A stretch of DNA of 64,000 bases from assembly GCA_028704015.1 (NCBI GenBank), contig JAQVLT010000006.1, positions 10,102 to 74,101 of the forward strand. The letters run 5' to 3'. The stretch comes from Patescibacteria group bacterium (GTDB taxonomy: Bacteria > Patescibacteriota > Patescibacteriia > Patescibacteriales > JAQVLT01). This document shows, one piece after another, positions 35,923 to 64,000 of the stretch. Position numbers and translations under genes: made by a program. The notes under the pieces are model-generated. The model did no database searches and was not told where the DNA came from. It worked only from the letters and a program-made list of their open reading frames with translations. How positions within the stretch are numbered: position 1 is the first letter of the stretch; every line of letters begins with the position of its first letter.

Positions 35923-35938
35923 AAATTTTTTTAAAACA

Positions 35939-38548: not shown

Positions 38549-38605
38549 TAGCAAAATAGAAACGATAAATATAAATTTTAAAAAATTAGCCTTAAACAAA
38601 AAACA

Positions 38606-39811: not shown

Positions 39812-39830
39812 TTAATTAAAATGCTATAAT

Positions 39831-39896
39831 GAGTTTTAGATTATGGGCATTCACCCCTAACCCCTCTGCCCAAAATCTAAAACGAAAAAAACAAAA
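39831..39896 (+). repeat. conserved hairpin with C-rich loop (TTTTAGATTaTGGGCA-TTCACCCCTAACCCCTC-TGCCCAAAATCTAAAA), copy 1
   Basis: A near-identical copy lies at 47763-47825. Both sit after the last ORF of a cassette. Confidence 0.85.
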
Positions 39897-39954
39897 CTGA
39901 ATTCTTTTTGCGAGTAATCCCAATAGCTATCGGGATTAAAGAAAAATATATACA

Positions 39955-40054
39955 TCAGCTAACACGGCATATCCGGTTGCGGCTTTTATACAAAAGCCTA
40001 CACCCACATTTGCCTCCGCTACGCTACGGCAAACATCAGATATGCCGAAACGTT
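39955..40054 (+). other. attC-like site 4
   Basis: TCAGCTAAC-AC-GGCATATCCGG ... CATCAGATATGCC-GAAAC-GTT. Its R'' is the reverse complement of GTTAGCTGA at 36230. Confidence 0.7.
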
Positions 40055-40228
40055 CCGCCGAAATCGCTCGCTTACGCTCGCTCCTTTTCGGCGGAACGGC
40101 TTCGGAATCCTTCCTCGTCCCGCTCAGTCGCTCGCAAGCTCGCGACATCGCGGAACTCGGAATACGCGAAATTGCCTTTCGTCCCGAAGCGTCGGGACTC
40201 CGGCAACTTCGCTTATTCCGAAGCCGTT
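40052..40228 (+). repeat. 177-bp element copy E5 (short variant)
   Basis: Identical to E4 by eye. Confidence 0.95.
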
Positions 40229-40420
40229 ATACGCAATTCAAAAAATATTTTTCTTTTAATAAGGAATTTTGACAGGCTTTTTAAAAAGGGGAATAAATTT
40301 GTTTTTTTATTTATTAGAAAGGGGTAATATTGTGTTTTTTCTGCTTTTGGAGGCGCAGAAAAAACGATTTACTTACAAGGGGAAAACGGGTACTATACAA
40401 TTACTTATTAGGAATAAACT

Positions 40421-41614
40421 ATGGCAAATAAAAATCTTACAAATGCTAAAAAGGCAAAGAATGATGAATTTTATACTCAATTTTCAGATATTCAAAAAGA
40501 AGTTGAGTCCTATCTTGAATATGACGCTAACACTTTCAAAGGGAAAGTAGTTTATAGCAACTGCGACGACCCATTTGAGAGTAATTTCTTCCGCTATTTT
40601 GTCCTAAATTTTAAAAGACTAGGGATGAAAAGACTTATTGCAACTAGTTACAAACCGTCACCAGTTGCGAATACTCAATTAGAGCTTTTTGGAAATGATA
40701 CTACTCTTAAACCCATGAAAGGACGCCCGAAAATAACTGCTAATAAATTCATTATTAACGAAGTTGGTGATGTGAATGGCGACGGTTCTTTTACGCTAGA
40801 AGATATTGCCCTACAACTTAAAGCAAACAAAAACAACGAATGGTCTCCGCTTGAGGGTGATGGTGACTTCAGGAGTGATGAGTGTGTCGAGTTACTCAAG
40901 CAATCTGATATTGTCGTCACTAATCCTCCGTTTAGTTTATTTCGTGAATATATAACTCAACTCTTTGAACATAAAAAACAATTTCTAATCATCGGAAATC
41001 TCAATGCAATAACTTACAAGGAAATTTTTCCAATGATCAAAGCGAATAAAGTTTGTTTGGGAAATAATGCAAGAGTTAATGGTGGTGCAATGTTTTATGA
41101 GATTCCAGAAGCTGTTGCAAACTTGGATCAAGTTCGTGAAATCAAAACGGATGAAAAAGGTAAAAAGGTATATATAACAAGAGTCCAGGGAGTTCGTTGG
41201 TTTACAAACCTTGACCACGGACGACTACACCAACCTATTCCCCTAATGAGTCATGCCGACGTCTTAAAGTTCAGTACAAATAAGCCATTCGTACACTATG
41301 ACAATTATGATGCTATTGAAATTGCTTTAGTAAAAAATATTCCTAAAGACTACAACGGCGTTATGGGCGTACCAATCAGTTTTTTAGATAAGTATTCACC
41401 CGATCAATTTGAGATTTTAGGGACAAGCGATAACGGTCTCGTAGATGACAAGTACAAAACATCGCTAGGTTTAAAAAAACAATTTGTAGAAGACTACTAC
41501 AAAGCTGGGGGCACTGGTGCCTACAAAGAAGGTAATCCAACAGCGGGTTTTTACGAAGACGGCATCGCAAAAATGGCTTACAAGCGAATTTTTATAAAAC
41601 ACAAGAAAAACTAA
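40421..41614 (+). CDS. N6-adenine DNA methyltransferase, EcoRI-methylase-like family
   Basis: 397 aa with N-terminal NDEFYTQ and catalytic VVTNPPFSLF (NPPF). Confidence 0.75.
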   Translation: MANKNLTNAKKAKNDEFYTQFSDIQKEVESYLEYDANTFKGKVVYSNCDDPFESNFFRYFVLNFKRLGMKRLIATSYKPSPVANTQLELFGNDTTLKPMKGRPKITANKFIINEVGDVNGDGSFTLEDIALQLKANKNNEWSPLEGDGDFRSDECVELLKQSDIVVTNPPFSLFREYITQLFEHKKQFLIIGNLNAITYKEIFPMIKANKVCLGNNARVNGGAMFYEIPEAVANLDQVREIKTDEKGKKVYITRVQGVRWFTNLDHGRLHQPIPLMSHADVLKFSTNKPFVHYDNYDAIEIALVKNIPKDYNGVMGVPISFLDKYSPDQFEILGTSDNGLVDDKYKTSLGLKKQFVEDYYKAGGTGAYKEGNPTAGFYEDGIAKMAYKRIFIKHKKN

Positions 41615-41615
41615 C

Positions 41616-42878
41616 ATGAAAAAAGTTAAAGTTTCAATTCAAGATGAAAACACGTTGGTTTTATTAGAAGATGGATCAAGGGGTGATTTAATTGACCTCA
41701 GGTCCATACATGAAGCTGATATTGATAAAACAACCATTACAAATGTGGTTAACTCCATAAAACGTGATGTTTTTAATGCTGAACTCCAAAAAGAAAAAAA
41801 TGTCATTAAGCGTGAAAATGAATTAAAGCTTGAACTCAAGGAAAAAGAGTTCAAAAGCCGCGCAAAAGAAGATTTAATGGAGAAAGACAAGGAAATTATT
41901 GCACTTAATTCAGAACTAAAAAATATCGCTGAGAAAACAGAATCAGCTATAAAACTTAAAGATATTCAAGAGAAGCAAAAGATAGAGGAGGAATACAGAG
42001 AAAAGTTGAACGAGAAAGAAATTGAGATAAATAACATCAAGCACGAGAAAGAATTAAGCGAGGAAAAACTAAAAGAACAAATCAAGTCAACAGAGACAGC
42101 TCTTGTTTCACTAAAGGAAATGCGCACCAAGATGAGTACTAAGATGATTGGTGAGTCTCTTGAAGTACACTGCGAAAATGAATTTAATCGTATTCGTCAT
42201 ATAGCATTTCCTAATGCAAAGTTTGGTAAAGATAATGCCGTATCAGAATCTGGTTCAAAGGGAGACTACGTTTATCGCGAAGTTGATGAAGATGGCAATG
42301 AGATTTTGTCCATTATGTTTGAAATGAAGAACGAGGATGACATTACCGCTACAAAGAAAAAGAATAAAGATTTCTTTAAGGAACTAGATAAAGATCGTCA
42401 GGAGAAAAAATGTGAATATGCTGTCTTGGTAAGTCTCCTTGAAAAAGATAATGAATATTATGATGACATTGTTCCTGTTTATGAATATAAACTTATGTAT
42501 GCTATCCGCCCCCAGCATTTCATTACTATCATTGGATTTCTACGACAAGCAAATATAAAATCACAGCACCTCAAGCGTGAAATTCACATACTTAACAATC
42601 AAAATGTTGACGTTTCAAACTTTGAAGCAAACATGAATGCATTTAAGGAGGCATTCTCAAGAAATTTCAGTTTGGCATCAACACAATTCTCTAACGCTAT
42701 TGCAGAGATAGATAAAACCATTGACCATTTAAATAAAGTCAAAGAAAATCTTCTAAAATCTGATAACAACCTACGACTTGCAAATAATAAGGCCACCGAC
42801 TTATCTATAAAGAAACTAACCTCCAATAGTCCAAGCGTAGCCAAAGCATTCGAAGAAATTAATAATGAAAATAAATAA
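41616..42878 (+). CDS. DUF2130 protein (coiled coil plus C-terminal PD-(D/E)xK-like module)
   Basis: 420 aa. [47 protein letters not shown] match the DUF2130 pattern from memory. Confidence 0.7.
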
Positions 42879-42880
42879 TT

Positions 42881-44044
42881 ATGAAAACCACACTAAAAAA
42901 TGACATCACGATAAAAGAAGTTTGCGATGGTTTTGTATATAATGAACTTGAAGGCAAAGGGCTGTTCGGTCTCTCGGGCAAACTAACTATTCAGCCAGAG
43001 TATCAGCGTAATTACATTTACGCTGACGGCAAATGTGACGTTGCTGTAATTGACTCAATTTTAAAAGGTTACCCAATAGGTTTAATTTATTTCAACCATG
43101 TTAGCACTGATAAATTTGAAGTGCTCGACGGACAGCAACGCATCACTAGTATTGGTCGGTTTGTGACAGGCAAGTTTGCCGTCAAAGATAAAAATGGACA
43201 TGAACAATATTACAGTGGCATGGCTACCAGTCAACGCGAGCAAATAATGAACGCTAAATTGTTAGTGTATTTGTGTAAAGGTGATGAGCTTGAGATTAAG
43301 GATTGGTTTAAAACTATCAATATCGCCGGAGTACCATTAACCGAACAAGAGATTCTCAATGCAGTATATTCTGGAACATTTGTTACTCGCGCTCGCGAAG
43401 AATTCAGTAATAGCCAAAATACCAACATTCAGAAATGGAGTACCTATATTGCAGGTGATATCAAACGCCAAGCATATTTAGAACGGGCTTTAGATTGGGT
43501 TTCTGGTGGAGAAATCGATAGCTACATGAGTAAACATCGGAACGATAAAAACATCACTGAACTGAAAAAGCATTTCGATACTGTCATTGACTGGGTTTCA
43601 ACCACCTTCACGGACGTTGAAAGTGAAATGAAGGGTCTTGAGTGGAACAGGCTTTACCAAACTTACCACAAGAAAAAATACAACCCAGCAATAGTTTCTG
43701 CTAAGGTTCAGAAACTCTATGCTGACGGCTTTGTAAAAAGTCGTAAAGGCATTTTTGAATATGTTTTAGGTGGAGAAGTAGAAACAAAACTGCTTGAAGT
43801 TCGAGTATTTGAAGACCCGACAAAACGTTCAGTGTATGAAGCTCAAACTTCCGCCGCAAAAAATAAAGGCATTTCAAATTGCTCGCATTGCGCGATTGGT
43901 CACGATGCGAACAAAACGAAAATTTGGGGTTTGAGCGATATGGATGCCGATCATGTTTCGGCTTGGAGCAAGGGCGGTGCAACAGATGTAAAAAATTGTG
44001 AGATGTTGTGTAAGACGCACAATCGAGCAAAGGGAAATCGTTAA
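42881..44044 (+). CDS. DUF262 (ParB/GmrS-like, DGQQR) plus C-terminal HNH endonuclease
   Basis: 387 aa. [19 protein letters not shown], and C-terminal [32 protein letters not shown]. Confidence 0.75.
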
Positions 44045-44145
44045 CCAAATAATTAAAATCAGTATGGAAAATGCTTAAAAAATAAATTGAGGATATAATG
44101 GAGAAAGTGAAATGTACATATATAATTTAGGCTAAAGACAGCAAT

Positions 44146-44173
44146 AAAAAACGCCTACCGGGGGCGTTTTTTG
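44146..44173 (+). terminator. intrinsic terminator
   Basis: AAAAAACGCC-TACCGGG-GGCGTTTTTTG. Confidence 0.75.
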
Positions 44174-44247
44174 TATTAATAGAGTTAAATACAGAAAGGT
44201 AAAGCATAAAAGAAAATGATAATTATTTGTTTTTGTGTCCCATTTTG

Positions 44248-44276
44248 TTGCGCTGGTGTCCCAAATATGCTAATAT
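44248..44276 (+). promoter_or_regulatory. promoter TTGCGC-17-TAATAT flanked and overlapped by a GTGTCCCA direct repeat
   Basis: tttGTGTCCCAttttgTTGCGCtgGTGTCCCAaatatgcTAATAT. It lies 40 nt upstream of the AAA ATPase gene. Confidence 0.5.
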
Positions 44277-44316
44277 ATTAAGTGTGGATAAAATAAATTC
44301 ATTTCATTTAAAATAA

Positions 44317-45363
44317 ATGTATATGCGCAAAAAAAACATTTTAAATTTAATTAAATATCATGCCGAAAAAAATGAGGCGGGTTTTAAAAATGAAGCCTAT
44401 GACATAGCAAGATATTTCGATTCTACTGGTGACTCTGAATTGGCTCAATATATTATGGCCTTACTGTCTGGCGCTAATACTTTTGTGCCGCAGGACAACG
44501 AATACAATCTTCCATTTTTTATGAAAGCAAATTTAGATAGTAGCAAATCCTTCCCACTTCCCACTCTTATAACAAACGATATAGTGGGCATTATAAATTC
44601 AATTGGACATAAGATTGGGGTTAACAAATTCTTATTTGAGGGTGATCCTGGAACAGGCAAAACTGAAACAGCAAAACAAATTGCTCGTATTCTTGAACGA
44701 GATTTATATGTGATAGATTTTGATAGTGTTATAGATAGCAAGCTTGGTCAAACGTCCAAAAACATTGCTTCCGTTTTTACAGAGTTACAAAGATTGCCTC
44801 ACCCAGAAAAAGTCATTATTTTATTTGACGAGATAGACGCAATAGCTTTAGATAGAATTAACTCTAACGATTTACGAGAAATGGGGAGAGTAACTTCTTC
44901 TGTTTTAAAAGGGTTGGATGGATTAAATGATGAAGTTGTTCTTATAGCCACCACTAATCTTTTTGGGCAATTCGATAAGGCTTTACTTAGAAGATTTGAT
45001 TCAATTATAAATTTTAATAGGTATAACAAAGAAGAATTGATTGAAGTCGCAGAATCTATGTTAAATGAGTTTTTAACAAAATTTAAATTTGCTAGTCGTA
45101 ATATGAGGCTTTTTAAAAAAATATTTTTAACATTAGACCATATTCCTTATCCTGGTGATTTGAAAAATATAATTAAAACCGCACTAGCATTTAGTGATCC
45201 AAATAATGAATATGATTACTTAAAAAAATTATATGAATCTATACAACCTAAAGACAAAAAGATAGATTTAAAAAAATTACAGTACAGCGGTTTTACGGTT
45301 AGAGAAATAGAAATATTAACAGGAGTTTCTAAAAGCCAAGTGTCGAGAGAACTAAATGTCTAA
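44317..45363 (+). CDS. AAA+ ATPase, IetA-like, with C-terminal HTH
   Basis: 348 aa. Walker A GDPGTGKTE, Walker B VIILFDEIDA, ATTN sensor. C-terminal FTVREIEILTGVSKSQVSREL. Confidence 0.75.
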   Translation: MYMRKKNILNLIKYHAEKNEAGFKNEAYDIARYFDSTGDSELAQYIMALLSGANTFVPQDNEYNLPFFMKANLDSSKSFPLPTLITNDIVGIINSIGHKIGVNKFLFEGDPGTGKTETAKQIARILERDLYVIDFDSVIDSKLGQTSKNIASVFTELQRLPHPEKVIILFDEIDAIALDRINSNDLREMGRVTSSVLKGLDGLNDEVVLIATTNLFGQFDKALLRRFDSIINFNRYNKEELIEVAESMLNEFLTKFKFASRNMRLFKKIFLTLDHIPYPGDLKNIIKTALAFSDPNNEYDYLKKLYESIQPKDKKIDLKKLQYSGFTVREIEILTGVSKSQVSRELNV

Positions 45364-47611
45364 AATTATGAACAATATTCTTCAATTAAAAGGTGTCCTT
45401 CAAGAACGTTCGCATATTGGCCGGCCAAGCTCTCGTAATGTTCCAAAAAATTCCCCAACTATAAATTCTGATAAACTAAAAAATTTGGTTAGACAGCTCC
45501 AGGATCTTGCTGATTATTGGACTAGGCAAAATATTATTAAGGGTTGCTTAGTTGATGTTTGTTATATCGACGTCATCGCTAAGAGTAATAGAATTAGTGG
45601 GTTATTATCAAGTAGTGGCTCTGTAAATGACTCTGTTGTTGGTGCAAGATTTGCTAATGAAGAGACAAGAAAACATGTGATTACGCATCATGTCAGCGAA
45701 AAAGTAATTCAGGATACAATTAAAAAATTAGAAGGCTGTATAAAGCTATTAGATGAAATATTTAGCGGAAAGATAACCCATGATTTGATTGGTGGTTTAA
45801 ATGATAAAAATATAAAGTATGAAAAATATGGGGTAACAAAAACAAATTTTCGAAATATAATTGTAGATTCACATTATGTAGAAGGTTTTACGGTTCCAAA
45901 TAACAGTGCAAACACAAATAATAGATCAATAATTACAATATATAAAACTAATGTTGGTTTAACTGAATTAATGAAAGATATCGGTATAAACGTTCAGCCT
46001 GATAAAATACTAAGTGAAACCACCTTGCTTTTATACCCAGATGAAATCAAACTCTTGTCAGACAAGGCACCATATCTAATTGCAATGTCGACAGAAGATA
46101 TATCTAAACTAAGTTTTAAAGATATTGTTGATGGCGCAAACAGCGAATCTGCTATAAAAACAATAGGATCACCCAAAGACGAACCTATTGTTGGCGTAAT
46201 AGATACTTTATTTGATGAATCAGTGTATTTTTCTGAATGGGTGGATTTTAGAAAAATGATCAATAAAGAAATACCTACGGAATCCAAAGATTATGTTCAC
46301 GGAACATCGGTAAGTTCAATTATTGTTGATGGGCCAACTATTCACCCAGAGCTAGATGATGGGTGTGGCAGATTCAGAGTTAGGCATTTTGGTGTAGCCG
46401 CACAAGGACAGTATAGCGCCTTTTCTATTATGAAAGCCATAAAAGAGATAGTTACTTCAAATCCAGATATAAAGGTATGGAATCTGTCTTTGGGATCCGA
46501 CAGAGAAATTAATCCCAATTTTATATCACCAGAAGCAGCTATACTAGATGAAATTCAATATGAAAATAATGTTATTTTTGTAATAGCAGGCACTAATAAA
46601 CGCGACGATGAAAGTAGGGTAGAAAAAATGATTGGCTCGCCCGCCGATTCAATTAATGCTATAGTTGTAAATTCGGTAAATAGTAAGGGATCTCCAGCAA
46701 CCTATTCCAGAAAGGGGTTAGTTTTATCATTTTTTAATAAACCAGACGTTAGTAGTTATGGAGGTGATAATGGCGATTATCTTAGGGTGTGTACACCAAC
46801 TGGCGAAGGTTTGTGCAGTGGTACTTCATACGCAGCTCCATGGGTAACTCGAAAAATTGCTTACTTGATAGAAGTACTCGGACTTAATCGAGAAGTCGCA
46901 AAAGCGCTAATTGTAGACGCTGCTGCTGGGTGGAATAGTATTGGCAATAATACTAAATTAGCACCCTTTGTGGGCCATGGGGTAGTACCTAAAAATATAG
47001 AAAACATTATAAAAGCGGATAATGATGAAATAAAGTTTATCATAAGTGGTATCTCTGAGAAATGGGATACATATGCTTATAATTTACCTGTTCCAACACA
47101 TAATAATAAACACCCTTTTGTTGCCAAAGCTACCTTATGTTATTTTCCCGGCTGCTCTATTAATCAAGGAGTTGATTACACAAACACAGAACTAGATATA
47201 TATTTTGGTAGAATTAAAGACAAGGGTATTAAGTCTATAAACAAGAATTGTCAAAATAATGATGACGGCGAAAAACATTATATATACGAAGGTAATGCCA
47301 GGGAATTTTACCGAAAATGGGACAACACTAAACATATAAATGAAATTCTTACAGATAGAGTTCATGCACGCGACGTTTACGATAAAGGCATGTGGGGACT
47401 AAGTATTAAATCAAAAGAAAGATTGAGTAGGCGTAGCAATGGTATTAATTTTGGTTTAGTTGTGACATTAAAGGAGATTTATGGAGTTAATAGAATTAAT
47501 GATTTTGTACATCAATGCGAATTACTTGGCTGGTTGGTAAATCGTGTAGATATAGATAATAAAATTGATATCTATAACAAGGCTCAGGAAATAGTTACAT
47601 TTGATAAGTAA
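45356..47611 (+). CDS. S8 subtilisin-like serine peptidase, IetS-like
   Basis: 751 aa with triad contexts VGVIDTLFD, HGTSVSSII, GTSYAAPWV. It overlaps the ATPase gene by 8 nt. Confidence 0.75.
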   Translation: MSKIMNNILQLKGVLQERSHIGRPSSRNVPKNSPTINSDKLKNLVRQLQDLADYWTRQNIIKGCLVDVCYIDVIAKSNRISGLLSSSGSVNDSVVGARFANEETRKHVITHHVSEKVIQDTIKKLEGCIKLLDEIFSGKITHDLIGGLNDKNIKYEKYGVTKTNFRNIIVDSHYVEGFTVPNNSANTNNRSIITIYKTNVGLTELMKDIGINVQPDKILSETTLLLYPDEIKLLSDKAPYLIAMSTEDISKLSFKDIVDGANSESAIKTIGSPKDEPIVGVIDTLFDESVYFSEWVDFRKMINKEIPTESKDYVHGTSVSSIIVDGPTIHPELDDGCGRFRVRHFGVAAQGQYSAFSIMKAIKEIVTSNPDIKVWNLSLGSDREINPNFISPEAAILDEIQYENNVIFVIAGTNKRDDESRVEKMIGSPADSINAIVVNSVNSKGSPATYSRKGLVLSFFNKPDVSSYGGDNGDYLRVCTPTGEGLCSGTSYAAPWVTRKIAYLIEVLGLNREVAKALIVDAAAGWNSIGNNTKLAPFVGHGVVPKNIENIIKADNDEIKFIISGISEKWDTYAYNLPVPTHNNKHPFVAKATLCYFPGCSINQGVDYTNTELDIYFGRIKDKGIKSINKNCQNNDDGEKHYIYEGNAREFYRKWDNTKHINEILTDRVHARDVYDKGMWGLSIKSKERLSRRSNGINFGLVVTLKEIYGVNRINDFVHQCELLGWLVNRVDIDNKIDIYNKAQEIVTFDK

Positions 47612-47762
47612 CCGTTAGTTTACAATTCCATCGGAGCTGTGTAAAAACAAAAGTACGTTTAATAGTATCACCAAAAAGTTTTAGGGATCAAACCCAAATA
47701 AAAGACAAAAATTCCCTCCCCTTAAACCCCTTCCTTTTTGCCTTTTATTTGAAAAGAATAAG

Positions 47763-47825
47763 GAGTTTTAGATTTTGGGCATTCACCCCTAACCCCTCTG
47801 CCCAAAATCCAAAACAAAAAACAAA
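47763..47825 (+). repeat. conserved hairpin with C-rich loop, copy 2
   Basis: Matches 39831-39896. It is preceded by a second AT-stem/C-rich-loop hairpin at about 47697-47755. Confidence 0.85.
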
Positions 47826-47879
47826 TTTATTATTAAGTAGCCTATCAAAATATTATTTTATTTAAAATATTTTTGAACA

Positions 47880-48005
47880 GCGTATAACACGGCATAATCT
47901 GGTTCCAGAATTTTTCATTAACAGTTAATAATAAGGAGTAAAAAATTCTTACACCCATATTTGCCTCCGCTACGCTACGGCAAACATCAGATATGCCGAT
48001 ACGTT
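47880..48005 (+). other. attC-like site 5
   Basis: GCGTATAAC-AC-GGCATAATCTGG ... CATCAGATATGCC-GATAC-GTT. Its R'' is the reverse complement of GTTATACGC at 40226. Confidence 0.7.
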
Positions 48006-48181
48006 CCGCCGAAATCGCTCGCTTACGCTCGCTCCTTTTCGGCGGAACGGCTTCGGAATCCTTCCTCGTCCCGCTCAGTCGCTCGCTCACGCTCGCGACA
48101 TCGCGGAACTCGGAATACGCGAAATTGCCTTTCGTCCCGAAGCGTCGGGACTCCGGCAACTTCGCTTATCCCGAAGCCGTT
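48003..48181 (+). repeat. 179-bp element copy E6
   Basis: As E1 with one substitution (TTATCCCGAAG). Confidence 0.95.
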
Positions 48182-48219
48182 AGACGAAATTTTTCAAAGC
48201 TACTAACAAAAATGAATAT

Positions 48220-48531
48220 ATGAAAAAAATTATTATCATTTCAACAATTATTATTCTGATTCTAGTAACTATTACTGGATTTATTTATTTTTATATGAAC
48301 CAAGGGTCTGATATTTCCGGGTTTCCAGATTATTATAAAAATTTAGCCAAAGAATGTGAATTAAAGCTAAGTCATGATTGTTGCATGTCTTCAGTAAACA
48401 TAATGACTAATGGAAATTATCAATTAGCTCCTGGCAAAACATTAGCAGAAAGCGGCTGCCCGGAAGGATATCAACCAAATATGTTAAAATGTATTGATAG
48501 CTTCAGATGGTGTGAGCCAATAAAACGGTAG
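48220..48531 (+). CDS. small secreted/membrane-anchored Cys-rich protein (cassette C6)
   Basis: 103 aa with an N-terminal TM helix and 7 Cys in the ectodomain. Confidence 0.55.
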   Translation: MKKIIIISTIIILILVTITGFIYFYMNQGSDISGFPDYYKNLAKECELKLSHDCCMSSVNIMTNGNYQLAPGKTLAESGCPEGYQPNMLKCIDSFRWCEPIKR

Positions 48532-48543
48532 TTTTGAAAAACA

Positions 48544-48595
48544 TCACTTAACACGCAATAAGCGACATTAAAACAATCGCTTATTGCGGGACGTT
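48544..48595 (+). other. attC-like site 6 (compact, no 179-bp element)
   Basis: TCACTTAAC-AC-GCAATAAGCGA-CATTAAAACAA-TCGCTTATTGC-GGGAC-GTT. Confidence 0.75.
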
Positions 48596-48660
48596 ATCGG
48601 AATTGCTCTTTTACAAAATACTTTTTAGGGGCTACATAACACGAAAAAAAGGAGGACAAG

Positions 48661-48903
48661 ATGGCCATCCAAGTCACAAGTTGGCAAGATCTAGCCGAGA
48701 AAACGTTCTTTAGCGGCTTAACTGCCCAAGAAGTTAAGGAAATGGGACTAACTTACAAACCAGGGAAAAGCTTTTCAACCCTGGCACAGACAATCAATAC
48801 TACAGGACCTCGTCCACCTTACAGTTACTGGGCAGTATTAGCCGGAAGGGAGGATGTTCTTCGAGAACATCTCGAAGGCAATCTTACAAACGACCGTGAT
48901 TAA
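48661..48903 (+). CDS. hypothetical protein (cassette C7)
   Basis: 80 aa with a strong SD, AAAGGAGGacaagATG. Confidence 0.55.
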   Translation: MAIQVTSWQDLAEKTFFSGLTAQEVKEMGLTYKPGKSFSTLAQTINTTGPRPPYSYWAVLAGREDVLREHLEGNLTNDRD

Positions 48904-48999
48904 CAGGGCTCCTTGGGGACATAAGCATGTCCCCGCCCCTAAAAAGCATTTTGTATTTTGGCTAATCGCCAAAAGGCTATCGCCTAAAAGAGCAATACA

Positions 49000-49121
49000 T
49001 CCGATAACACGGCATATCCAGCTCGGACTTTTCCGAAAGTCCTCACGCAAATTTTTGTTTCTCTTTACTTTATAATAAATAAAGGTGGAGAAACAAAATC
49101 TTCGGATGATGCCGAAACGTT
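49000..49121 (+). other. attC-like site 7
   Basis: TCCGATAAC-AC-GGCATATCC ... GGATGATGCC-GAAAC-GTT. Its R'' is the reverse complement of GTTATCGGA at 48593. Confidence 0.7.
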
Positions 49122-49315
49122 CCGCCGAAATCGCTCGCTTACGCCTGCCTACCGGCAGGCAGGCTCGCTCTTTTTCGGCGGAACGGCTTCGGAATTCTTC
49201 CTCGTCCCGCTCAGTCGCTCGCAAGCTCGCGACATCGCGTAACTCGGAATAAGCGAAATTGCCTTTCGTCCCGAAGCGTCGGGACTCCGGCAACTTCGCT
49301 TATTCCGAAGCCGTT
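49119..49315 (+). repeat. 197-bp element copy E7 (divergent; carries a nested GC-rich palindrome)
   Basis: Short variant with several substitutions. CCTGCCTACCGGCAGGCAGG (49143-49164) is inserted in the first hairpin loop. Confidence 0.95.
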
Positions 49316-49349
49316 GTACGAAATATCATTCACCTTTAATTCGTAAAAT

Positions 49350-49769
49350 ATGAAAACTGCCTACATATTCGGGCCAATTCATTTATTCGGACAAGATTAT
49401 TTACCCGTCTATAAACATCTCATGAAACTTTGTGAGCCGTATTTTGATAAAGTCATTGGCACTTATCCCGATTTTTGGGATAGTAAAGAAACTCCGCGTG
49501 AATTTTATGACCGCACCTACCAAGTTATTACTAAATGCCAGCTTTTTATCGGCGAGGTCTCAAGTCCTTCGATGGGTGTTGGCATGGAATTTCAAATGGC
49601 GCAGGAAAACAATATCCCATGTATAGCGCTTTGCAAAAAAGGAGTTGAGCCGTCGATGATGATCGCTGGCATACCTTGTACTAAAAAAGTTGTTTATTAT
49701 GAAGACTTCGCCGACTTGTCCGAACAAATGAATGAGATATTAAAAGATACGAGCTGGTTAAACGGGTGA
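49350..49769 (+). CDS. nucleoside 2-deoxyribosyltransferase-like protein (cassette C8)
   Basis: 139 aa with the SMGVGMEFQMA nucleophile-loop pattern. It differs at 2 aa from the 59818-60237 copy. Confidence 0.6.
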   Translation: MKTAYIFGPIHLFGQDYLPVYKHLMKLCEPYFDKVIGTYPDFWDSKETPREFYDRTYQVITKCQLFIGEVSSPSMGVGMEFQMAQENNIPCIALCKKGVEPSMMIAGIPCTKKVVYYEDFADLSEQMNEILKDTSWLNG

Positions 49770-54455: not shown

Positions 54456-54496
54456 AAACGTAGTATAAAGTAAAAAGGTAAAAATTAAAAGACTTT

Positions 54497-55846
54497 CTAC
54501 TTTCTACTTTCTACTTTTCGCCTCAGTACGCTGTATTCCGGCACGCTCTCGCCGACCTCCAAAATCACTGTTTGGCCGCCGCTACCGCCGTGCGCTTCGC
54601 TAATTTCCTTATTATTTTTAATATCAACCAATTTTTCCACCCTCATTTTTATTATATCATAAAACGGCCGGACAATCTCAATCTCATCCCCCACTTTTAC
54701 GGTATTGTGTACTTTAACTAAAATTCTGTTACGTGCTATGTGATATGTGCTATGTGAAATAACTTGTCCGCAAAACTCCCATTTACTCGACTGATGTGAC
54801 AGCTTTAGCTCTTGGTCCGCCTTGCCACCCAAAAGAAAGCCGGTAGTATAACCGCGATGCACTAATTTTTTATCCAATTCATTATAAAAATAATCCAAAT
54901 CTTTTTTTGTTATGTGTTTTATGTTATGTGTTACGTGAGAATAAATTCCATTAACCATCGCCTCATAATAAACGCTCTTGGCCCGCCCTTCGATTTTAAA
55001 GCTAGTTACACCGGCGTCAACTAATTTATCCAAATATTTTATCAAACATAAATCTTTTGAATTCAAAATATAACTTCCATGCTCCTCTTCCACAATCTCC
55101 AAGGGCTGATCAAATCTTTTTTCTTCTGCAATAAAATATTCTTTACTTTCTACTTTCAACTTCTTGTCCGCCGAAGCTTTAGCGAAGGCAGATCTACTTT
55201 CAACTCCGTAAGGCCACCGGCATGGCTGTGTGCAATCGCCTAAATTAGCGCTCCGATCATTAAAATATTTAGAAAGAAAACAACGTCCCGAATATGCCAT
55301 ACACATCGCGCCATGGACAAAATATTCCAATTCCATTTCCGGCGCGCGCCGATGAATTTCTTTAATTTCATCAAGCGTCGTTTCCCGGCCCAAGATAATC
55401 CTCTTTACTCCGGCTTTCCGCCAAAATTTAACCGCCTGCCAATTTGTGCAATTCGCCTGCGTGGAAAGATGAATTTCGCAAGCCGGCCATATTTTTTTTG
55501 CCAAAACTAAAACTCCAGGGTCAGAAATAATTAAGGCGTCAACTTTTATCTTTTTAAGCTCTTTTAAATAAGGCGGCAATTTATCAAGATGTTTGTTGTG
55601 CGCAAAAATATTTATTGTCACATAAACTTTCTTGCCTAATTCATGGGCATATTTCACCGCCTCTTTCACTCCGGCTAAATCAAAATCATTAATCCGCACA
55701 CGCAAAGAAAAATCAGGAATGCCCAGATAAATCGCGTCGGCGCCAAAAGCGAAAGCGGTTTTCATTTTTTCCAAATTCCCTGCTGGTGCGAGTAACTCAA
55801 TTTTTTTTATTTTTAATTTTTTCATAATAACCTCGTTAAAAAACAC
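54497..55846 (-). CDS. U32 family peptidase
   Basis: N-terminal ELLAPAGN..AFAFGADAIYLG pattern. The likely start is Met 55825. It contains two in-frame GTTAYGT heptad arrays. Confidence 0.8.
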   Translation of the reverse strand: MFFNEVIMKKLKIKKIELLAPAGNLEKMKTAFAFGADAIYLGIPDFSLRVRINDFDLAGVKEAVKYAHELGKKVYVTINIFAHNKHLDKLPPYLKELKKIKVDALIISDPGVLVLAKKIWPACEIHLSTQANCTNWQAVKFWRKAGVKRIILGRETTLDEIKEIHRRAPEMELEYFVHGAMCMAYSGRCFLSKYFNDRSANLGDCTQPCRWPYGVESRSAFAKASADKKLKVESKEYFIAEEKRFDQPLEIVEEEHGSYILNSKDLCLIKYLDKLVDAGVTSFKIEGRAKSVYYEAMVNGIYSHVTHNIKHITKKDLDYFYNELDKKLVHRGYTTGFLLGGKADQELKLSHQSSKWEFCGQVISHSTYHIARNRILVKVHNTVKVGDEIEIVRPFYDIIKMRVEKLVDIKNNKEISEAHGGSGGQTVILEVGESVPEYSVLRRKVESRK

Positions 55847-59680: not shown

Positions 59681-60274
59681 AACGTATCCAAATATCTGAA
59701 GTTTGTTGGAGTGAAACGAAAGCAAATTTGGGTTGAAAAAGTTTTTCACTCCTTAATTTAAAAATCTAATAAGGCAAAACTTTTGAGCCAGCTATTTGGT
59801 GTTGTACGATGTATCGTTCACCCGTTTAACCAGCTCGTATCTTTTAATATCTCATTCATTTGTTCGGACAAGTCGGCGAAGTCTTCATAATAAACAACTT
59901 TTTTAGTACAAGGTATGCCAGCGATCATCATCGACGGCTCAACTCCTTTTTTGCAAAGCGCTATACATGGGATATTGTTTTCCTGCGCCATTTGAAATTC
60001 CATGCCAACGCCCATTGAAGGACTCGAGACCTCGCCGATAAAAAGCTGGCATTTAGTAATAACTTGGTAGGTACGGTCATAAAATTCACGCGGAGTTTCC
60101 TTGCTATCCCAAAAATCGGGGTAAGTACCAATGACTTTATCAAAATACGGCTCACAAAGTTTCATGAGCTGTTTATAGACGGGCAAATAATCTTGCCCGA
60201 ACAAATGAATTGGTCCAAATACGTAGGCAATTTTCATAATTTACGGATTAAGGGTGAATGATATTTCGTACAAC
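59681..60274 (-). mobile_element. orphan integron-type cassette (NDT-like gene plus its own attC-like site) inserted between core genes
   Basis: Minus strand reads G|TTGTACGAA...CDS...TCGTACAAC-AC-CAAATAGCTGG...CTTCAGATATTTGG-ATAC-GTT. Homology to array cassette C8 begins exactly at GTT. Confidence 0.7.
59818..60237 (-). CDS. nucleoside 2-deoxyribosyltransferase-like protein (inverted duplicate of 49350-49769)
   Basis: 139 aa, differing from 49350-49769 at 2 residues. The 3' half of the gene is identical at the DNA level by eye. Confidence 0.6.
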   Translation of the reverse strand: MKIAYVFGPIHLFGQDYLPVYKQLMKLCEPYFDKVIGTYPDFWDSKETPREFYDRTYQVITKCQLFIGEVSSPSMGVGMEFQMAQENNIPCIALCKKGVEPSMMIAGIPCTKKVVYYEDFADLSEQMNEILKDTSWLNG

Positions 60275-60285: not shown

Positions 60286-61170
60286 TTACCAACTCCCGCT
60301 AGATCCTCCGCCCCCCGAACCGCCACCGCCAAAACCACCAAACCCTCCACCGCCAAAACCACTGCCGCCTCGCCCACCGCCAATCCACCATGGGATAGGT
60401 CCGCCAGCTTTGTGCTTAGCATAACTCCTAGATACCACAAAATCAAACAACAAGCCAAGCGGTATTAAAATGACGATGGAAGCAATGCCGAAATATAAAA
60501 AACCTTTAATAACACCAATAATTACACCGATTATCCCACCTATAACACCACCGGCCCACCAAGACTTGCTTCTACCTAATATACTAGCTAACCACAAAAT
60601 AACAAATATTACAACCCAAAATATAAATTCCCAATTACTGTTACTCAAACCACTTGCTAGTTTTTCTTCTGGCACATATTCGCCCTTAGTCGCGGCAATA
60701 ATTTTATCAACGGCGCCGTCAATCCCGCCGTAATAATTATTTTCGCGAAATGCCGGCTTCATTATGTCATTAATAATCCAATAGCTCTGCGCGTCAGTTA
60801 AAGCGCCTTCCAGGCCATAGCCGACTTCAATGCGCATCTGCCGATCATTAATAGCGACCAAAAGCAAAACGCCATTATCTTTATTTTTCTTGCCAATTCC
60901 CCAATCCTTAAATAATTCCACGGCAAAATTTTCAATAGTGTCGCCGTCCAGGCTCGCAATTGTCACAATAGAAATTTCATTACTGGTATCTTTCTCAAAT
61001 TGTACTAATTTATTTTCCAGCGCCTGTTTTTGGTCAGCCGCCAACACTCCGGCAAAATCATTAGCATAACCAGTCGGCTGGCCAGGATTGGTATAAGCAA
61101 AAACGGGAAAAACAAGAAAACAAGAAAACAAGAAAACAAGAAAACAATTTTTTAGTAAACTTTTTTTCAT
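60286..61170 (-). CDS. TPM-domain protein with Gly-rich C-terminus
   Basis: 294 aa with signal peptide, NDFAGVL...QFEKDTSNEISIVTI (TPM), C-terminal TMs, and a GGGSGFGGGGFGG tail. AACAAGAA x4 lies in the signal-peptide codons. Confidence 0.8.
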   Translation of the reverse strand: MKKSLLKNCFLVFLFSCFLVFPVFAYTNPGQPTGYANDFAGVLAADQKQALENKLVQFEKDTSNEISIVTIASLDGDTIENFAVELFKDWGIGKKNKDNGVLLLVAINDRQMRIEVGYGLEGALTDAQSYWIINDIMKPAFRENNYYGGIDGAVDKIIAATKGEYVPEEKLASGLSNSNWEFIFWVVIFVILWLASILGRSKSWWAGGVIGGIIGVIIGVIKGFLYFGIASIVILIPLGLLFDFVVSRSYAKHKAGGPIPWWIGGGRGGSGFGGGGFGGFGGGGSGGGGSSGSW

Positions 61171-61192
61171 TCTTAAATCTTAATTCCTAATT

Positions 61193-61235
61193 CCCTGCCT
61201 GCCGCCTGCCTGTCCGGTAGGCAGGGCAGGCAGGT
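61193..61235. repeat. GC-rich palindrome family member (double-length)
   Basis: CCCTGCCTGCCGCCTGCCTGTCCGGTAGGCAGGGCAGGCAGGT. Confidence 0.85.
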
Positions 61236-61240
61236 TAAAT

Positions 61241-61810
61241 CTAAAATTTCACCGCTGGTGCATTTTCCGCTCCGGCAGCCGCTTCAAAATATGCTTTTTC
61301 ATTAAAGCCAAACCAACCAGCAAGAATATTCGCCGGCACGCGTTTGATCATAGTATTGAATGCCTGAACTTGATCATTAAATCTTTTTCTTTCTACACTG
61401 ACTCTGTTTTCCGTGCCTTCCAATTGCGCCATTAAAGTCTGGACAGTATCAACCGATTTTAATTGCGGATAATTTTCCATAACCACTAGCAATCTTGACA
61501 ATGCGCCCTCAACTTCTGTCGCCGCTTCTGCTTTTTCATTTACAGTCGCAGCGCCGGCATAACGAGTACGCGCTTCGGCTAAATCTCCAAAAACTTTAGT
61601 TTCCTGCGCCATTGCGCCCTTTACTGATTCTACTAAATTTGGAATTAAATCAAAACGCCTTTGATATTGCGTTTCTACCTGCGCCCATTGACCGGTAACT
61701 GCCTGATCAGCGGCAACCATTTTGTTATAAACGCTCCAAGCGTAGATGCCCACGACAACAACGAGGGCAAAAATGATAATAAGAGCTTTTTTCATAAAAC
61801 TTTTTCGCAT
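61241..61810 (-). CDS. lemA: LemA family protein
   Basis: 189 aa with N-terminal TM and the QYQRRFDLIPNLV and ENRVSVERKRFN motifs. Confidence 0.9.
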   Translation of the reverse strand: MRKSFMKKALIIIFALVVVVGIYAWSVYNKMVAADQAVTGQWAQVETQYQRRFDLIPNLVESVKGAMAQETKVFGDLAEARTRYAGAATVNEKAEAATEVEGALSRLLVVMENYPQLKSVDTVQTLMAQLEGTENRVSVERKRFNDQVQAFNTMIKRVPANILAGWFGFNEKAYFEAAAGAENAPAVKF

Positions 61811-61876
61811 AACGCGTAACGTAAAACGTATAACGCATTATGAAAATTTTTAATTTTGTAATTTTTAAATAATATC

Positions 61877-62227
61877 TTAATTTTTATTAACAACTTTGAC
61901 ATTATTCAAATCAAAAACTTCTTTGATTATAACTAAAATAGCATTTTTTGGCGGATATGTCATATCGCTATGAAAACATAAATCAAAATATTTTCCCTCG
62001 GAAAAAATTTCCGCCTCTCCTTTGATCCTAAAATAACCACCTATAATACAAATATTTTTATTACTTTGCAAATTCTTAAGCGTGGTGTTCATCTGAGAAT
62101 CTTTTATTAACAATTTGCCATCAACAAAACCTAATGAAGTAACTATATTCGCGTTTGGTATTCCGTCAGGCGAAACAGTTGCCAGAATAATTTCCTTTTC
62201 TTTTTGAAAATTTTCTTGCCAACCCAT
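61877..62227 (-). CDS. pyridoxamine 5'-phosphate oxidase-like FMN-binding split-barrel protein
   Basis: 116 aa with LATVSPDGIPNANIV, typical of the PNPOx-like fold. Confidence 0.5.
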   Translation of the reverse strand: MGWQENFQKEKEIILATVSPDGIPNANIVTSLGFVDGKLLIKDSQMNTTLKNLQSNKNICIIGGYFRIKGEAEIFSEGKYFDLCFHSDMTYPPKNAILVIIKEVFDLNNVKVVNKN

Positions 62228-62238
62228 ATTTATAATTT

Positions 62239-63387
62239 TTAATTGATAACCTGCCTGCCGGTAGGCAAGGTTTTTAGTTGAAAATTAACTTCCCTACCTC
62301 TCGCTTTCGGCGCATGATAACCAGCGAGGAGACAAGCGGACTTTAAAATTTCTTCTTCGCTTTTATTCTCACTTAATTTTAAATTTTCTATATTTAGCTC
62401 CTTCGGAATTTGTAATTTAAAATTTGATAATTCATTTAAAACCTGCCTGCCCTGCCTGCCGGACAGGCAGGCGGTAGGCAAGGTTGAAAATTGAAAATTG
62501 AAAATTCTAACAACAGTCAGCGGTCCTACTTCGTTCTTTAATTCTACCACAATATCTCCCTTTTTTGCCAATTTTTCTAATGCTTCATTATCTCTTTTAT
62601 CTCTACCCACTATAATTAATATATATTTTTTATCCATCTTTGCCCAAAAAGGCCGTCCATATTTAAGCAACTCTACATCTTTAGGCCCACACTCCGGCCA
62701 ATTCTTTATCATCTCTCGTAATTTATCACAAAATTGCGCTTCAGTTAGCAAACATCCGCCAGCAGGAGCAGGATATTTTTTGATGCCAAATTTTTTTGCG
62801 AGTTTCATCTGCCTTTCCCGGCCGCGGCCTTCAATGTCCAATAATTTTTTTCTGTTTATCAAGCCTATTTTTTCATAAATTGTCTCTGGCAATAATTTCG
62901 CGGAAAGTGGACGCAAAACTTCCACCCCGGCTAATTTTTCCACTCGTCCAAGCGACTGTTTATTTTGCGACATCGGACGCTGGCCCAAAACTTCACCCGT
63001 AGCAATAACCTCTCCCGCCCCCTCTCTCCTGCCTCTCCCCGACTCGCTATCGCTCGTCACCCCTCTCCTAATTAGGAGAGGGGTCGGGGGAGAGGTGAGG
63101 ACGGACGCTTTTTTTATCATGAACGCATGGCAATCAATACAAGGATTTAGACATTTGCCATGTCCACACTTGGGATTTTTTACTATTTCCAAAAGTTCTT
63201 TACTAATATTAATAACTTCCAATGGAACTTTAAGTTCTTCAACCGCTTCACGCGCTTTATTGGCGTTAAAAAAATTACTCTCAAAAGCAACCGCGGTCAC
63301 ATCAATTCCTTGCGCTTGTAAAATTTTTACCGCGAGCATTGAGTCCAATCCGCCGGATAATAAAACTAGAGCTTTAATCTTTTTCAT
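62239..63387 (-). CDS. PP-loop ATP pyrophosphatase (ThiI/MnmA-like tRNA thiolation-type) carrying three in-frame repeat inserts
   Basis: N-terminal SGGLDS PP-loop and CIDCH Cys pair. Inserts lie at 62248-62272, 62441-62485 and 63009-63100. Confidence 0.6.
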   Translation of the reverse strand: MKKIKALVLLSGGLDSMLAVKILQAQGIDVTAVAFESNFFNANKAREAVEELKVPLEVINISKELLEIVKNPKCGHGKCLNPCIDCHAFMIKKASVLTSPPTPLLIRRGVTSDSESGRGRREGAGEVIATGEVLGQRPMSQNKQSLGRVEKLAGVEVLRPLSAKLLPETIYEKIGLINRKKLLDIEGRGRERQMKLAKKFGIKKYPAPAGGCLLTEAQFCDKLREMIKNWPECGPKDVELLKYGRPFWAKMDKKYILIIVGRDKRDNEALEKLAKKGDIVVELKNEVGPLTVVRIFNFQFSTLPTACLSGRQGRQVLNELSNFKLQIPKELNIENLKLSENKSEEEILKSACLLAGYHAPKARGREVNFQLKTLPTGRQVIN

Positions 63388-63454
63388 ATTTAAACTTTTG
63401 ACAAGCGTGGTGGGGGCTAAGACTGCTAGCCCCCGATTTATTTATCCTCTCCTC

Positions 63455-63670
63455 TTAATAATAGAGGTATACAACCTCCGCGGCATACCATGGAACAAAC
63501 AACATACTCATGGTAATTTTAAAAGATTTTTTGACCTTACAATGATCGGGGTTAACAAGATACCCCCGCGTTTCCCCCATCGAACCAGCGACGGCATAGA
63601 GTATCGGGTAGCCCGCCACTCCCTTGAGTTGGATCAGAAATAAACTCACGTTCCCCTCCTTTCTCTTCAT
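63455..63670 (-). CDS. possible small protein (65-71 aa) in a GC-rich intergenic block
   Basis: AAGGAGG lies 6 nt before GTG at 63649, and the ORF runs to TAA at 63455. There is no recognisable family, so the region could instead be structured RNA. Confidence 0.3.
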   Translation of the reverse strand: MKRKEGNVSLFLIQLKGVAGYPILYAVAGSMGETRGYLVNPDHCKVKKSFKITMSMLFVPWYAAEVVYLYY

Positions 63671-63696
63671 CTGAAGAAATTTGAAGGAACAATATC

Positions 63697-64000
63697 TTAA
63701 ACTCGCTTAATCCCCAAAATACATTTCTCGCCATTCACATTAACTTCTTTCTTATTCTCTCCGCCCTCGCCTTGAGTTAAACTAACCGATAGAGTATCTT
63801 TTAATATTTCATCTTTAAATAATTCAAATGCCTCTTTCACGCCCGCGCCATCACTCTGCCAATAGATTTCCACGCGATCTTGAATTGATAATCCAGCATC
63901 TTTGCGCAAAGCATTGACAAAGCGAACAATTTCGCGCTTCACGCCTTCCAATTTTAATTCTTCGGAAATCTCCGTGTTCAGTTCAACCGCAATCTCTCCG
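63697..64000 (-). CDS. class I aminoacyl-tRNA synthetase C-terminus (IleS-like), partial (continues right of window)
   Basis: The frame is open to the window edge (..GEIAVELNTEISEELKLEGVKREIVRFVNALRKDAGLSIQDRVEIYW..), resembling IleRS C-terminal domains. Confidence 0.5.
   Translation of the reverse strand, partial: GEIAVELNTEISEELKLEGVKREIVRFVNALRKDAGLSIQDRVEIYWQSDGAGVKEAFELFKDEILKDTLSVSLTQGEGGENKKEVNVNGEKCILGIKRV

Follow-up and report, generated by a model that had tools for sequence, protein, structure and literature searches.

Two Small GC-Rich Palindromic Repeat Families Have Probably Colonized Three Permissive Positions of an Intact PP-Loop ATPase Gene in a Patescibacteria Bacterium

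Introduction

Rickettsia palindromic elements (RPEs), described by Ogata et al. in 2000 and treated in a later review (PMC10969869), are repeats of about 100-150 bp that are confined, in that review's account, to Rickettsia. A similar situation is described here for a 64,000-nt stretch of DNA (the whole stretch analyzed, hereafter the window; contig JAQVLT010000006.1, positions 10,102 to 74,101, assembly GCA_028704015.1) from a Patescibacteria bacterium of the candidate phyla radiation (CPR), in which a gene for a PP-loop ATPase carries three in-frame segments derived from two small GC-rich palindromic repeat families, designated P and S1. As with the RPEs outlined in that review, the palindromic repeats lie in frame in unrelated housekeeping genes of a small-genome bacterium, the host genes are intact, and the repeats would be translated as extra peptides at fold-compatible positions. 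P and S1 are set apart from the RPEs of that account by size and host (P measures 20 or 21 nt, S1 is modular with about 55-95 nt, and the host belongs to Patescibacteria), and P, in addition, occurs in many other phyla and in phage contigs and nests in itself and in other repeats. The functional PP-loop gene has probably been colonized by the two families at three permissive positions, and the inserts are best regarded as selfish or neutral DNA rather than as an adaptation of the enzyme.

The GC clusters of fungal mitochondria are a second precedent, since they are likewise GC-rich palindromes in an AT-rich genome, mostly intergenic and in some cases in frame, as in var1, and since they merge, nest and shuffle into composites and are moved by an enzyme that is not established (PMC8811140). 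Those clusters, however, possess terminal AG/TAG repeats taken as target-site duplications, whereas P shows a duplication of at most 1 nt (PMC8811140); the bacterial host and the sequences themselves are also different here. In the literature, no description of palindromic or in-frame insertion elements in CPR/Patescibacteria and no mention of the P sequence was found.

The Three In-Frame Insertions

The three repeat-derived segments of the PP-loop gene lie where a preceding reading of the window from the letters alone (hereafter the sequence-only reading) had placed them and encode the peptides it gave; its expectation of loop insertions was borne out by an alignment of 120 orthologs and by structure prediction, which locate the segments as in-frame insertions at a loop, a linker and the C-terminal tail. 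Compared with the family medians, the stretch from M90 to A129 has 38 aa instead of 16 (+22 aa), the linker from R294 to P328 has 33 instead of 17 (+16 aa, or +14 to +16 aa given as a range), and the tail after G364 has 18 instead of 11 (+7 aa). The excess totals 45 aa, and 382 - 45 = 337 aa corresponds to the family baseline. In the AlphaFold (AF2) model built on the same orthologs, the inserted peptides fall at fold-compatible positions, and the only segments of low confidence by the predicted local distance difference test (pLDDT) are residues 98-126 (pLDDT about 49, unstructured), 296-313 and 374-382, with values below 50 both for residues 304-310 of the linker insert and for the C-terminal tail. 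The largest insert was thought in the sequence-only reading to separate the PP-loop domain from the rest of the protein; it is actually situated inside that domain, because it is flanked by helix 83-97 and strand 127-130 of the model. The insert-spanning peptides expected from the gene are ..LKTLPTGRQVIN, ..FQLKTLPTGRQVIN and ..PLLIRRGV...

At the DNA level, the C-terminal site is a clean 21-nt insertion, with CTAAAAA(21 nt)TTATCAATTAA in the window against TTACGAATTATTAATTAG in ortholog P0002. It was placed seven codons ahead of the ancestral ..IIN-stop end, the orthologs finishing in ..FQLRIIN-stop. The linker site, TTTTCAA(42 nt)TTTTAAA in the window, has a clean empty counterpart, TTTTCAATTTTAAA, in the syntenic ortholog P0017. 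The 42 nt form a nested double in which one 21-nt unit (about 62452-62472) occupies the center of a second unit, the latter being identical to the C-terminal copy. The tandem arrays around both P insertions of the gene are AT-rich and have a period of 7 nt (AATTTTC, translated FNFQFS), and the ortholog counterpart of the linker array is AATTTTC/AATTTTA. The S1 element is a nested hairpin of modules: outer arms ACCTCTCCC../..GGGAGAGGT at 63008-63030 and 63074-63096 (23 nt, 83% complementary), an inner perfect palindrome, the core, CCCCTCTCCTAATTAGGAGAGGGG at 63059-63084, and an extra module GACTCGCTATCGCTCGTC.

The PP-loop family possesses a fourth insertion hot spot between W248 and L257 (query numbering), which is empty in the window gene and is occupied in other orthologs by the repeat-like KSTNDGKSTND, TRKERINTKGTK or PPCLPDRQ, or by a conserved 45-aa extra segment. 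The observation extends to the N-termini in this alignment.

Identity and Integrity of the Host Gene

Judged from its sequence, the PP-loop gene is one intact gene. The sequence-only reading had named a pseudogene, or two genes split at the inserts, as the finding that would speak against it; a single intact coding sequence was found instead, and the gene is neither of these because it forms a single open reading frame (ORF), retains the conserved motifs and yields a confident model. The SGGLDS (SGGxDS) motif, C83, C86, C212 and the other family-invariant columns are all kept, and the model, with a mean pLDDT of 89 and a predicted template modeling score (pTM) of 0.86, was matched by Foldseek to TrmU/MnmA, LarE, ThiI and TtuA. 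The domain arrangement comprises a ThiI/MnmA/LarE-like N-terminal part, a weak NFACT-R_2-like match and a C-terminal domain; the N-terminal PP-loop region was matched by ThiI, tRNA_Me_trans, QueC and LarE-type models of Pfam and NCBIfam. The 382-aa protein is an exact match of a hypothetical protein in a Patescibacteria metagenome-assembled genome, and its homologs number in the thousands, mostly with lengths of about 335 aa. The gene follows IleRS and is succeeded by LemA and TPM genes, an order shared by five orthologous loci. Furthermore, an independent assembly of the same organism (GCA_028707515.1) matched over 4,090 nt, all three inserts included, with one mismatch and no gaps.

Family P in the Window

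P behaves as a discrete unit whose length is fixed: it shows clean filled/empty site pairs, nests, prefers tandem arrays, and obeys rules of length and frame in its coding copies. Composed of CCTG and CAGG tetranucleotides (the CCTGCC palindrome family), it occurs as a near-perfect 20-nt palindrome, CCTGCCTGCCGGYAGGCAGG, in its non-coding form (P20) and as a 21-nt variant, CCTGCCTGCCGGTAGGCAAGG, in its coding form (P21). The 25-mer AACCTGCCTGCCGGTAGGCAAGGTT has exactly two copies in the window (62248-62272 and 29840-29864; zero expected by chance), and the word CCTGCCTGCC occurs 15 times with at most one mismatch, against 1.13 expected. Eight P loci are found in the window, five of them non-coding (Table 1). 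The inserts are 21, 42 and 21 nt long at the coding sites and 20, 20, 20, 20 and 41 nt long at the non-coding sites, so that all of the former and none of the latter are multiples of three; counted as units, 21-nt copies account for 4/4 coding and 1/6 non-coding copies (Fisher p about 0.024). Frame preservation, which the sequence-only reading had raised, does not amount to a bias on arbitrary insert lengths, P being in frame by means of its 21-nt variant and S1 by means of its sole stop-free frame.

A filled/empty pair is available even within one genome. Among seven aligned copies of a 179-bp repeat, six are empty and one holds a clean 20-nt P at 49144-49163, any target-site duplication being limited to 1 nt. 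Arrays of period 7 or 8 flank most P copies of the window, whose GC content ranges from 28 to 42% in 2-kb bins, and the insertion point is split between AA and TT at all three coding P sites.

The second host gene of the window, a member of the FemAB family, contains both families in frame, its P21 copy being read in a frame that differs from that of the PP-loop copy. Both inserts are gaps in 27 orthologs, and several FemAB orthologs hold P-like (LPTGQAG, LPDGQ) or S1-like inserts of their own at the same hot spots. The FemAB gene also has heptamer-encoded segments (CGCGTAA x4.3 at 30179-30208).

Table 1. Positions of the host genes, repeat copies and related features (window numbering unless a contig is named).
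Feature	Position	Strand	Description
PP-loop ATPase gene	62239-63387	-	Single stop-free ORF, 382 aa, aligns end to end with orthologs
P21 unit, C-terminal	62250-62270	-	Coding strand CCTTGCCTACCGGCAGGCAGG; adds TLPTGRQ; ancestral end ...VIN-stop
Nested double P, linker	62442-62483	-	42 nt, encodes TLPTACLSGRQGRQ
Heptamer tandem array	62484-62506		(TTGAAAA) x3.3, encodes ..IFNFQFS; target array of the double P; Tandem Repeats Finder (TRF)
S1 element	about 63007-63100	-	Modular nested hairpin, about 93 nt, encodes LTSPPTPLLIRRGVTSDSESGRGRREGAGEV
FemAB-family gene	29470-30546	-	Second host gene; P and S1-like families in frame
P21 in FemAB gene	29842-29862	-	Read PCLPAGR
S1-like nested hairpin in FemAB gene	about 29975-30040	-	CTCCCTCC..GGAGGGAG, encodes LPLSPSFVRREDKAQGEGS
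P20 in 179-bp repeat copy	49144-49163		In the loop of that copy's first hairpin
Intergenic nested double P	61194-61234		20 + 21 = 41 nt, between TPM and LemA genes
Intergenic P20	29427-29446		Repeat search
Diverged P20 copy	13681-13700		Non-coding; repeat search
Diverged P20 copy	15557-15576		Non-coding; repeat search
IS200-type Y1 (HUH) transposase gene	11082-11516	-	Pfam Y1_Tnp E = 1.5e-28; only transposase among window ORFs of at least 90 aa
P/tRNA-half locus	L029 4021-4060
P/tRNA-half locus	L062 2105-2146

Family P in Other Genomes and Phages

A genome scan for the 20/21-nt P pattern, with one genome per species, gave at least 120 loci; the matches listed span Patescibacteria, Bacteroidota (cultured strains included), Planctomycetota, Omnitrophota, Nitrospirota and Proteobacteria. 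The nested double is also seen in other genomes. In phage contigs, the P 20-mer was found in 35 stretches, against 0 each for four control palindromes, two of them composition-matched and two built from tetranucleotides like P (CCAG- and CGTC-based). A generic GC hairpin arising convergently was rejected on these counts.

Among the matches listed, ORFs of at least 150 aa contain 7/9 of the 21-nt copies vs 19/110 of the 20-nt copies (p = 3e-4). According to Pfam, the P-bearing ORFs include LeuRS, MiaA, a family-1 glycosyltransferase, RsmH, a DNA polymerase III delta'-like protein, a GAF protein, an RfbB-like dehydratase and FtsK. No frame of P20 contains a stop, and yet xLP(A/T)GRQx is the peptide encoded in nearly all cases, a preference that speaks for translation of the inserts and a filter at the peptide level.

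When P was removed in silico, a short-period array, mostly of 7 nt, crossed the junction at 23/162 sites among the matches listed, compared with 5/880 random sites (p = 3e-15). The idea that P enters local palindromes at their dyad axis was rejected as a general rule, flank complementarity of at least 2 bp being as expected (14 sites vs 13.4 expected; 155 P sites among the matches listed). Heptanucleotide TAACTGA repeats have been described as intergenic in Beggiatoaceae, Cyanobacteria and Bacteroidetes and occasionally present in ORFs (PMC4679880), and the flanks of P resemble them in the excess of 7-nt arrays in spacers, sometimes in ORFs, scattered over phyla. In contrast to those repeats, for which GC palindromes within the arrays were not described (PMC4679880), the heptamer varies here from array to array.

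The window contains 33 period-7 tandem arrays, against 2.9 in Markov-1 simulations (examples at 27819-27945, 28623-28654 and 54492-54517). A perfect (TAATTGT) x18 array overlaps the 3' end of a Mur ligase gene, and several other period-7 arrays lie inside ORFs, where a change by one copy would shift the reading frame.

P is also found in RNA genes. A tRNA-Met(CAT) gene of phage contig L151 (2239-2330) holds it in the variable region and is nonetheless called by ARAGORN as a 92-nt tRNA, and a near-identical sequence in L128 (about 8570-8660) is present without an ARAGORN call. Directly after a D-loop-like tRNA 5' half, P was found in phage contig L158 (about 495-560) and in Patescibacteria and WWE3 genomes (Table 1).

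Family S1: Distribution and Spread

The 24-nt S1 core was detected in 91 metagenome stretches, nearly all of them low in GC, with 30/94 hits well within ORFs of at least 150 aa. The host genes, on CPR-like metagenome contigs, cover at least 10 different housekeeping gene families, including RsmA/KsgA, TGT, a family-2 glycosyltransferase, MurG, the CCA-adding enzyme, a PBP transpeptidase, an RMKL-like methyltransferase, an exonuclease III family member and TsaD as well as the PP-loop gene. The core is always read PLLIRRG, which corresponds to the sole stop-free frame of the palindrome.

At the PP-loop site, the core occupies the same position in orthologs P0013, P0014, P0007 and P0020, accompanied by differing inner hairpins, one to three in number; P0017 and P0032 lack it. 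On a neighbor-joining tree of conserved columns, Fitch parsimony gives 11 state changes for the presence of an S1-type insert, and P0014, which is filled, has near-identical relatives that are empty. The P0014 (L253) and P0032 (L254) genes form a recombination mosaic, with an identity of 100% in the 3' 570 nt and of about 93% in the part around and 5' of the S1 site. Because of this mosaic, the spread of filled alleles by homologous recombination appears at least as likely as repeated insertion of S1. Independent repeated gains are not claimed, as recombination can yield the same pattern.

Both of these genes are extended at the N-terminus by repeat-like sequence and have a TRKERINTKGTK insert in common. 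The genome that holds a triple-hairpin S1 inside its PP-loop gene has a second S1-like hairpin, CCCCTCTCCTAAATAGGAGAGGGG, at L006 8008-8031, within the short spacer immediately upstream of the start of that gene. The S1-bearing MurG, TsaD and exonuclease III genes of CPR genomes (L180, L190 and L213) carry other repeat-encoded stretches as well, among them NTKTRKHENTKTRKHENTKTQ, KFQITNSKQITNSKSQIPNKSQIP and NPSAGSANSPQAGSGRG. Several repeat classes seem to invade the same CPR proteins.

Search for a Mobilizing Enzyme and Relation to Known Families

All window ORFs of at least 90 aa were scanned against Pfam, and the Y1 protein detected (Table 1) scores as IS200 in NCBIfam (89 bits) and gives 22.9 against a cut-off of 80 for the model of RAYT, the transposase associated with repetitive extragenic palindromic (REP) sequences. 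Its gene is bracketed by two direct copies (11007-11093 and 11521-11609) of a block of about 90-95 nt with three hairpins each; these blocks were found nowhere else in the window and are unrelated to P or S1. No insertion sequence (IS) with P-like or S1-like ends was seen in the 64-kb window.

P resembles REP sequences with their REPIN doublets, which RAYT (Y1/HUH) transposases mobilize, and the palindromic elements derived from IS200/IS605, in that short palindromes (about 20-40 nt) lie in intergenic DNA, for P at five non-coding loci out of eight in 64 kb, and in that the window contains a gene for a Y1 transposase; insertion without target duplication would fit single-strand hairpin transposition. 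P nevertheless has no terminal GTAG-type tetranucleotide, GGTAGG being found only in the loop of the T variants, and its doubles are nested rather than arranged as tail-to-tail inverted doublets; the window Y1 protein, by its score and its unrelated flanking hairpins, also differs from a RAYT. To our knowledge, REP sequences are lineage-specific, whereas P crosses phyla. Within the window ORFs of at least 90 aa and the 155 P loci listed, a RAYT/REP link for P is not supported.

[quoted passage not shown] Inverted ends are present here, as the S1 arms pair and P itself is palindromic, but neither target-site duplications (at most 1 nt for P; a replacement for S1) nor a parent IS was found in the window. 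We know of no MITE that is nearly as short as P. The likeness to ERIC, BOX, Correia and cyanobacterial elements consists in the small, non-autonomous units with inverted-repeat ends that are occasionally in frame in ORFs (PMC10969869). In summary of these comparisons, the behavior of the two families matches that of RPEs and mitochondrial GC clusters, and membership in the RPE, REP/RAYT, MITE or GC-cluster groups fails on defining features, namely size and host, a cognate RAYT with a terminal tetranucleotide, target duplication, and terminal repeats, respectively.

Proposed Origin of the Inserts and Alternative Explanations

Based on the alignments, the predicted structure and the distribution of the repeats, a likely course of events was proposed. 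P would insert as a discrete 20/21-nt unit, without visible target duplication, into short tandem arrays (mostly of 7 nt), into the center of another P or into the loop of another hairpin repeat. The insertion step probably takes place on single-stranded or hairpin DNA and could be catalyzed by a trans-acting enzyme, for which Y1/HUH transposases would be the best known precedent. Transcription and translation would then turn the inserts into short peptides without order, such as LPTGRQ and PLLIRRG, and filled alleles could subsequently spread between related genomes via homologous recombination. Inserts persist because their length is a multiple of three, because the frame used is free of stops and because they sit in surface loops, in a linker or at the C-terminal tail, and they are therefore read as selfish or neutral DNA that has passed through a selective filter.

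Several observations weigh against this explanation. The S1 site of P0014 and P0032 is a replacement of about 14-17 nt by about 53-56 nt and no clean insertion, and since S1 occupies the same site in several orthologs, much of its patchiness may go back to a single old event with later recombination or loss instead of repeated insertion. Long ORFs contain some of the 20-nt P copies too, for example FtsK in L026. No enzyme was linked to either family in these searches, the Y1 transposase of the window having unrelated flanking hairpins; in tblastn searches with the window Y1 protein and a Bacteroidota Y1 protein, homologs were found near 3/155 P loci among the matches listed and adjacent in only one. 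Translation of the inserts, moreover, is deduced from the nucleotide sequence, and the hairpins may have a function.

The RNA hairpins are strongly stable, as would be expected if they were cis-elements selected within or next to the gene (mRNA stabilizers, terminators or attenuators, translational pause sites, protein-binding sites or elements coupling the gene to the downstream PNPOx-like gene) and the peptides were incidental. On folding, the C-terminal segment reached -11 kcal/mol (z-score -2.4), the linker segment -29 kcal/mol (z-score -4.0) and the S1 segment -58 kcal/mol (z-score -4.6); the C-terminal copy lies 8 nt ahead of the stop codon and about 22 nt ahead of the following start codon; the S1 core is identical in DNA among orthologs with only about 55% protein identity; and P occurs intergenically between tandem genes. 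Such a role is nonetheless unlikely. Most orthologs have no inserts, including P0032, P0069 and P0073, which are about 95-97% identical to P0014 outside the variable regions, and the units are also found in many unrelated genes, in tRNA genes and in other repeats. The terminator function suggested in the sequence-only reading was not supported: the C-terminal copy has no sense-strand U-tract, a terminator scan was unenriched (5 sites vs 2.9 expected), the coding copies lie inside the ORF, and at 62250 a terminator-like structure was called only for the antisense strand. A search of 61000-64000 against Rfam 15 returned two hits at chance level (E = 0.28 and 0.71). The bias in peptide frame, finally, indicates a constraint at the protein level.

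Repeated local formation of the palindromes in simple sequence like (CCTG)n/(CAGG)n beside heptamer arrays, through template switching or slippage and without insertion of pre-existing units, would account for the tetranucleotide composition of P and its position inside slippage-prone arrays, and the nested doubles could be read as symmetric expansions. It is rated as decidedly unlikely, given that identical 21-mers and 25-mers occur at unrelated loci of the genome, that the same 21-mer is also found in other phyla among the matches listed, that filled and empty sites differ cleanly by a fixed length, and that the CCAG- and CGTC-based control palindromes gave no hits in the phage contigs searched.

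The inserts might also be present in DNA and mRNA and absent from the protein, owing to translational bypassing or removal at the RNA level. The precedent is found in the GC-cluster "byps" of Magnusiomyces mitochondrial coding regions, which are bypassed during translation (PMC8811140), and the hairpins examined here are stable. This course is very improbable, since all coding copies examined keep the frame without stops, which would be unnecessary under bypassing, and since the 21- vs 20-nt partition and the restriction to the LP(A/T)GRQ and PLLIRRG frames indicate selection on the translated product. A pseudogene, a pair of genes divided at the inserts, or an error of assembly is scarcely credible as an account of the locus, for beyond the odd composition of the inserts nothing speaks for it, and against it stand the stop-free ORF with its conserved catalytic motifs and end-to-end alignment, the confident full-length model, the agreement with the second assembly, and the occurrence of the inserted elements in cultured isolates and complete genomes.

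Colonization of a functional gene by selfish or neutral repeats is accordingly considered the likely explanation. A more extensive proposal, which is tentative and would not be favored at present, is that P is a 20-nt mobile unit that moves within and between phyla and phages, that targets short (mostly heptanucleotide) tandem arrays and the loops of structured DNA or RNA genes (hairpin repeats, its own center, and tRNA D-loops and variable loops), that has given rise to a 21-nt derivative able to enter coding sequence while keeping the frame, and that is moved by a widespread, possibly phage-borne and so far unrecognized activity. If mobile, the 20-nt P would be the smallest transposable unit known to us.

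The few special cases of in-frame "selfish DNA in genes" described so far are the RPEs of Rickettsia, the GC clusters of fungal mitochondria and now and then a MITE, to which the CPR, a very large and poorly understood share of bacterial diversity, can now be added. The two families recur in at least 10 different housekeeping gene families each, and part of the unexplained length variation and of the low-complexity loops of CPR proteins thereby receives an explanation at the sequence level; if the more extensive proposal of a mobile P is correct, loop insertions of CPR housekeeping proteins would have P, S1-type hairpins and heptamer arrays together as a major source, hitherto undescribed. For annotation and structure prediction, LP(A/T)GRQ, PLLIRRG and the heptamer-encoded NYELRITN and FNFQFS should be treated as repeat DNA and not as conserved motifs. 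The 20- vs 21-nt partition indicates that selection sorts length variants of one mobile unit and offers a testable case of purifying selection, and the exact 20-mer across phyla, the zero counts of the control palindromes and the preference for heptamer arrays together pose a sharp question as to how P moves.

Shared Repeat Modules and the Cassette Region

The sequence-only reading had suggested one pool of GC-rich hairpin modules seeding terminators, cassette sites and coding inserts. For P, this view is sustained, as the CCTGCC palindrome family is common to intergenic spacers, to one copy of the cassette-associated 179-bp repeat and to coding inserts; it is not supported for terminators or for extended homology to the site at 35.2 kb. 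The extra module of S1 is weakly tied to the 179-bp repeats through the motif TCGCTNNCGCTCG (12 hits vs 0.02 expected). A word of the third insert, TCGCTATCGCTCG, does recur in the second attC-like site, at 35237-35249 rather than 35239-35251, and is really part of the 14-mer CTCGCTATCGCTCG (blastn-short E = 0.02). Extended homology between the insert and the attC-like site was rejected, since this one 14-mer is all that is shared.

A tyrosine recombinase gene at 31079-31897 (- strand; Phage_integrase E = 1e-42) adjoins an array at about 32000-49300, in which the seven copies of the 179-bp hairpin-rich repeat alternate with defence-type genes in an integron-like cassette organization. The cassette genes encode DpnI, Bro-N, a trypsin-like protease, Shedu SduA, an EcoRI methylase, DUF2130, GmrSD/HNH, AAA and subtilase proteins. 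Beside the last 179-bp repeat, about 364 nt (49313-49676) are 94.8% identical to the region 59911-60274 (via L001 13114-13477); the two regions are paralogous copies of a small gene, the second of which holds the ORF at 59818-60237.

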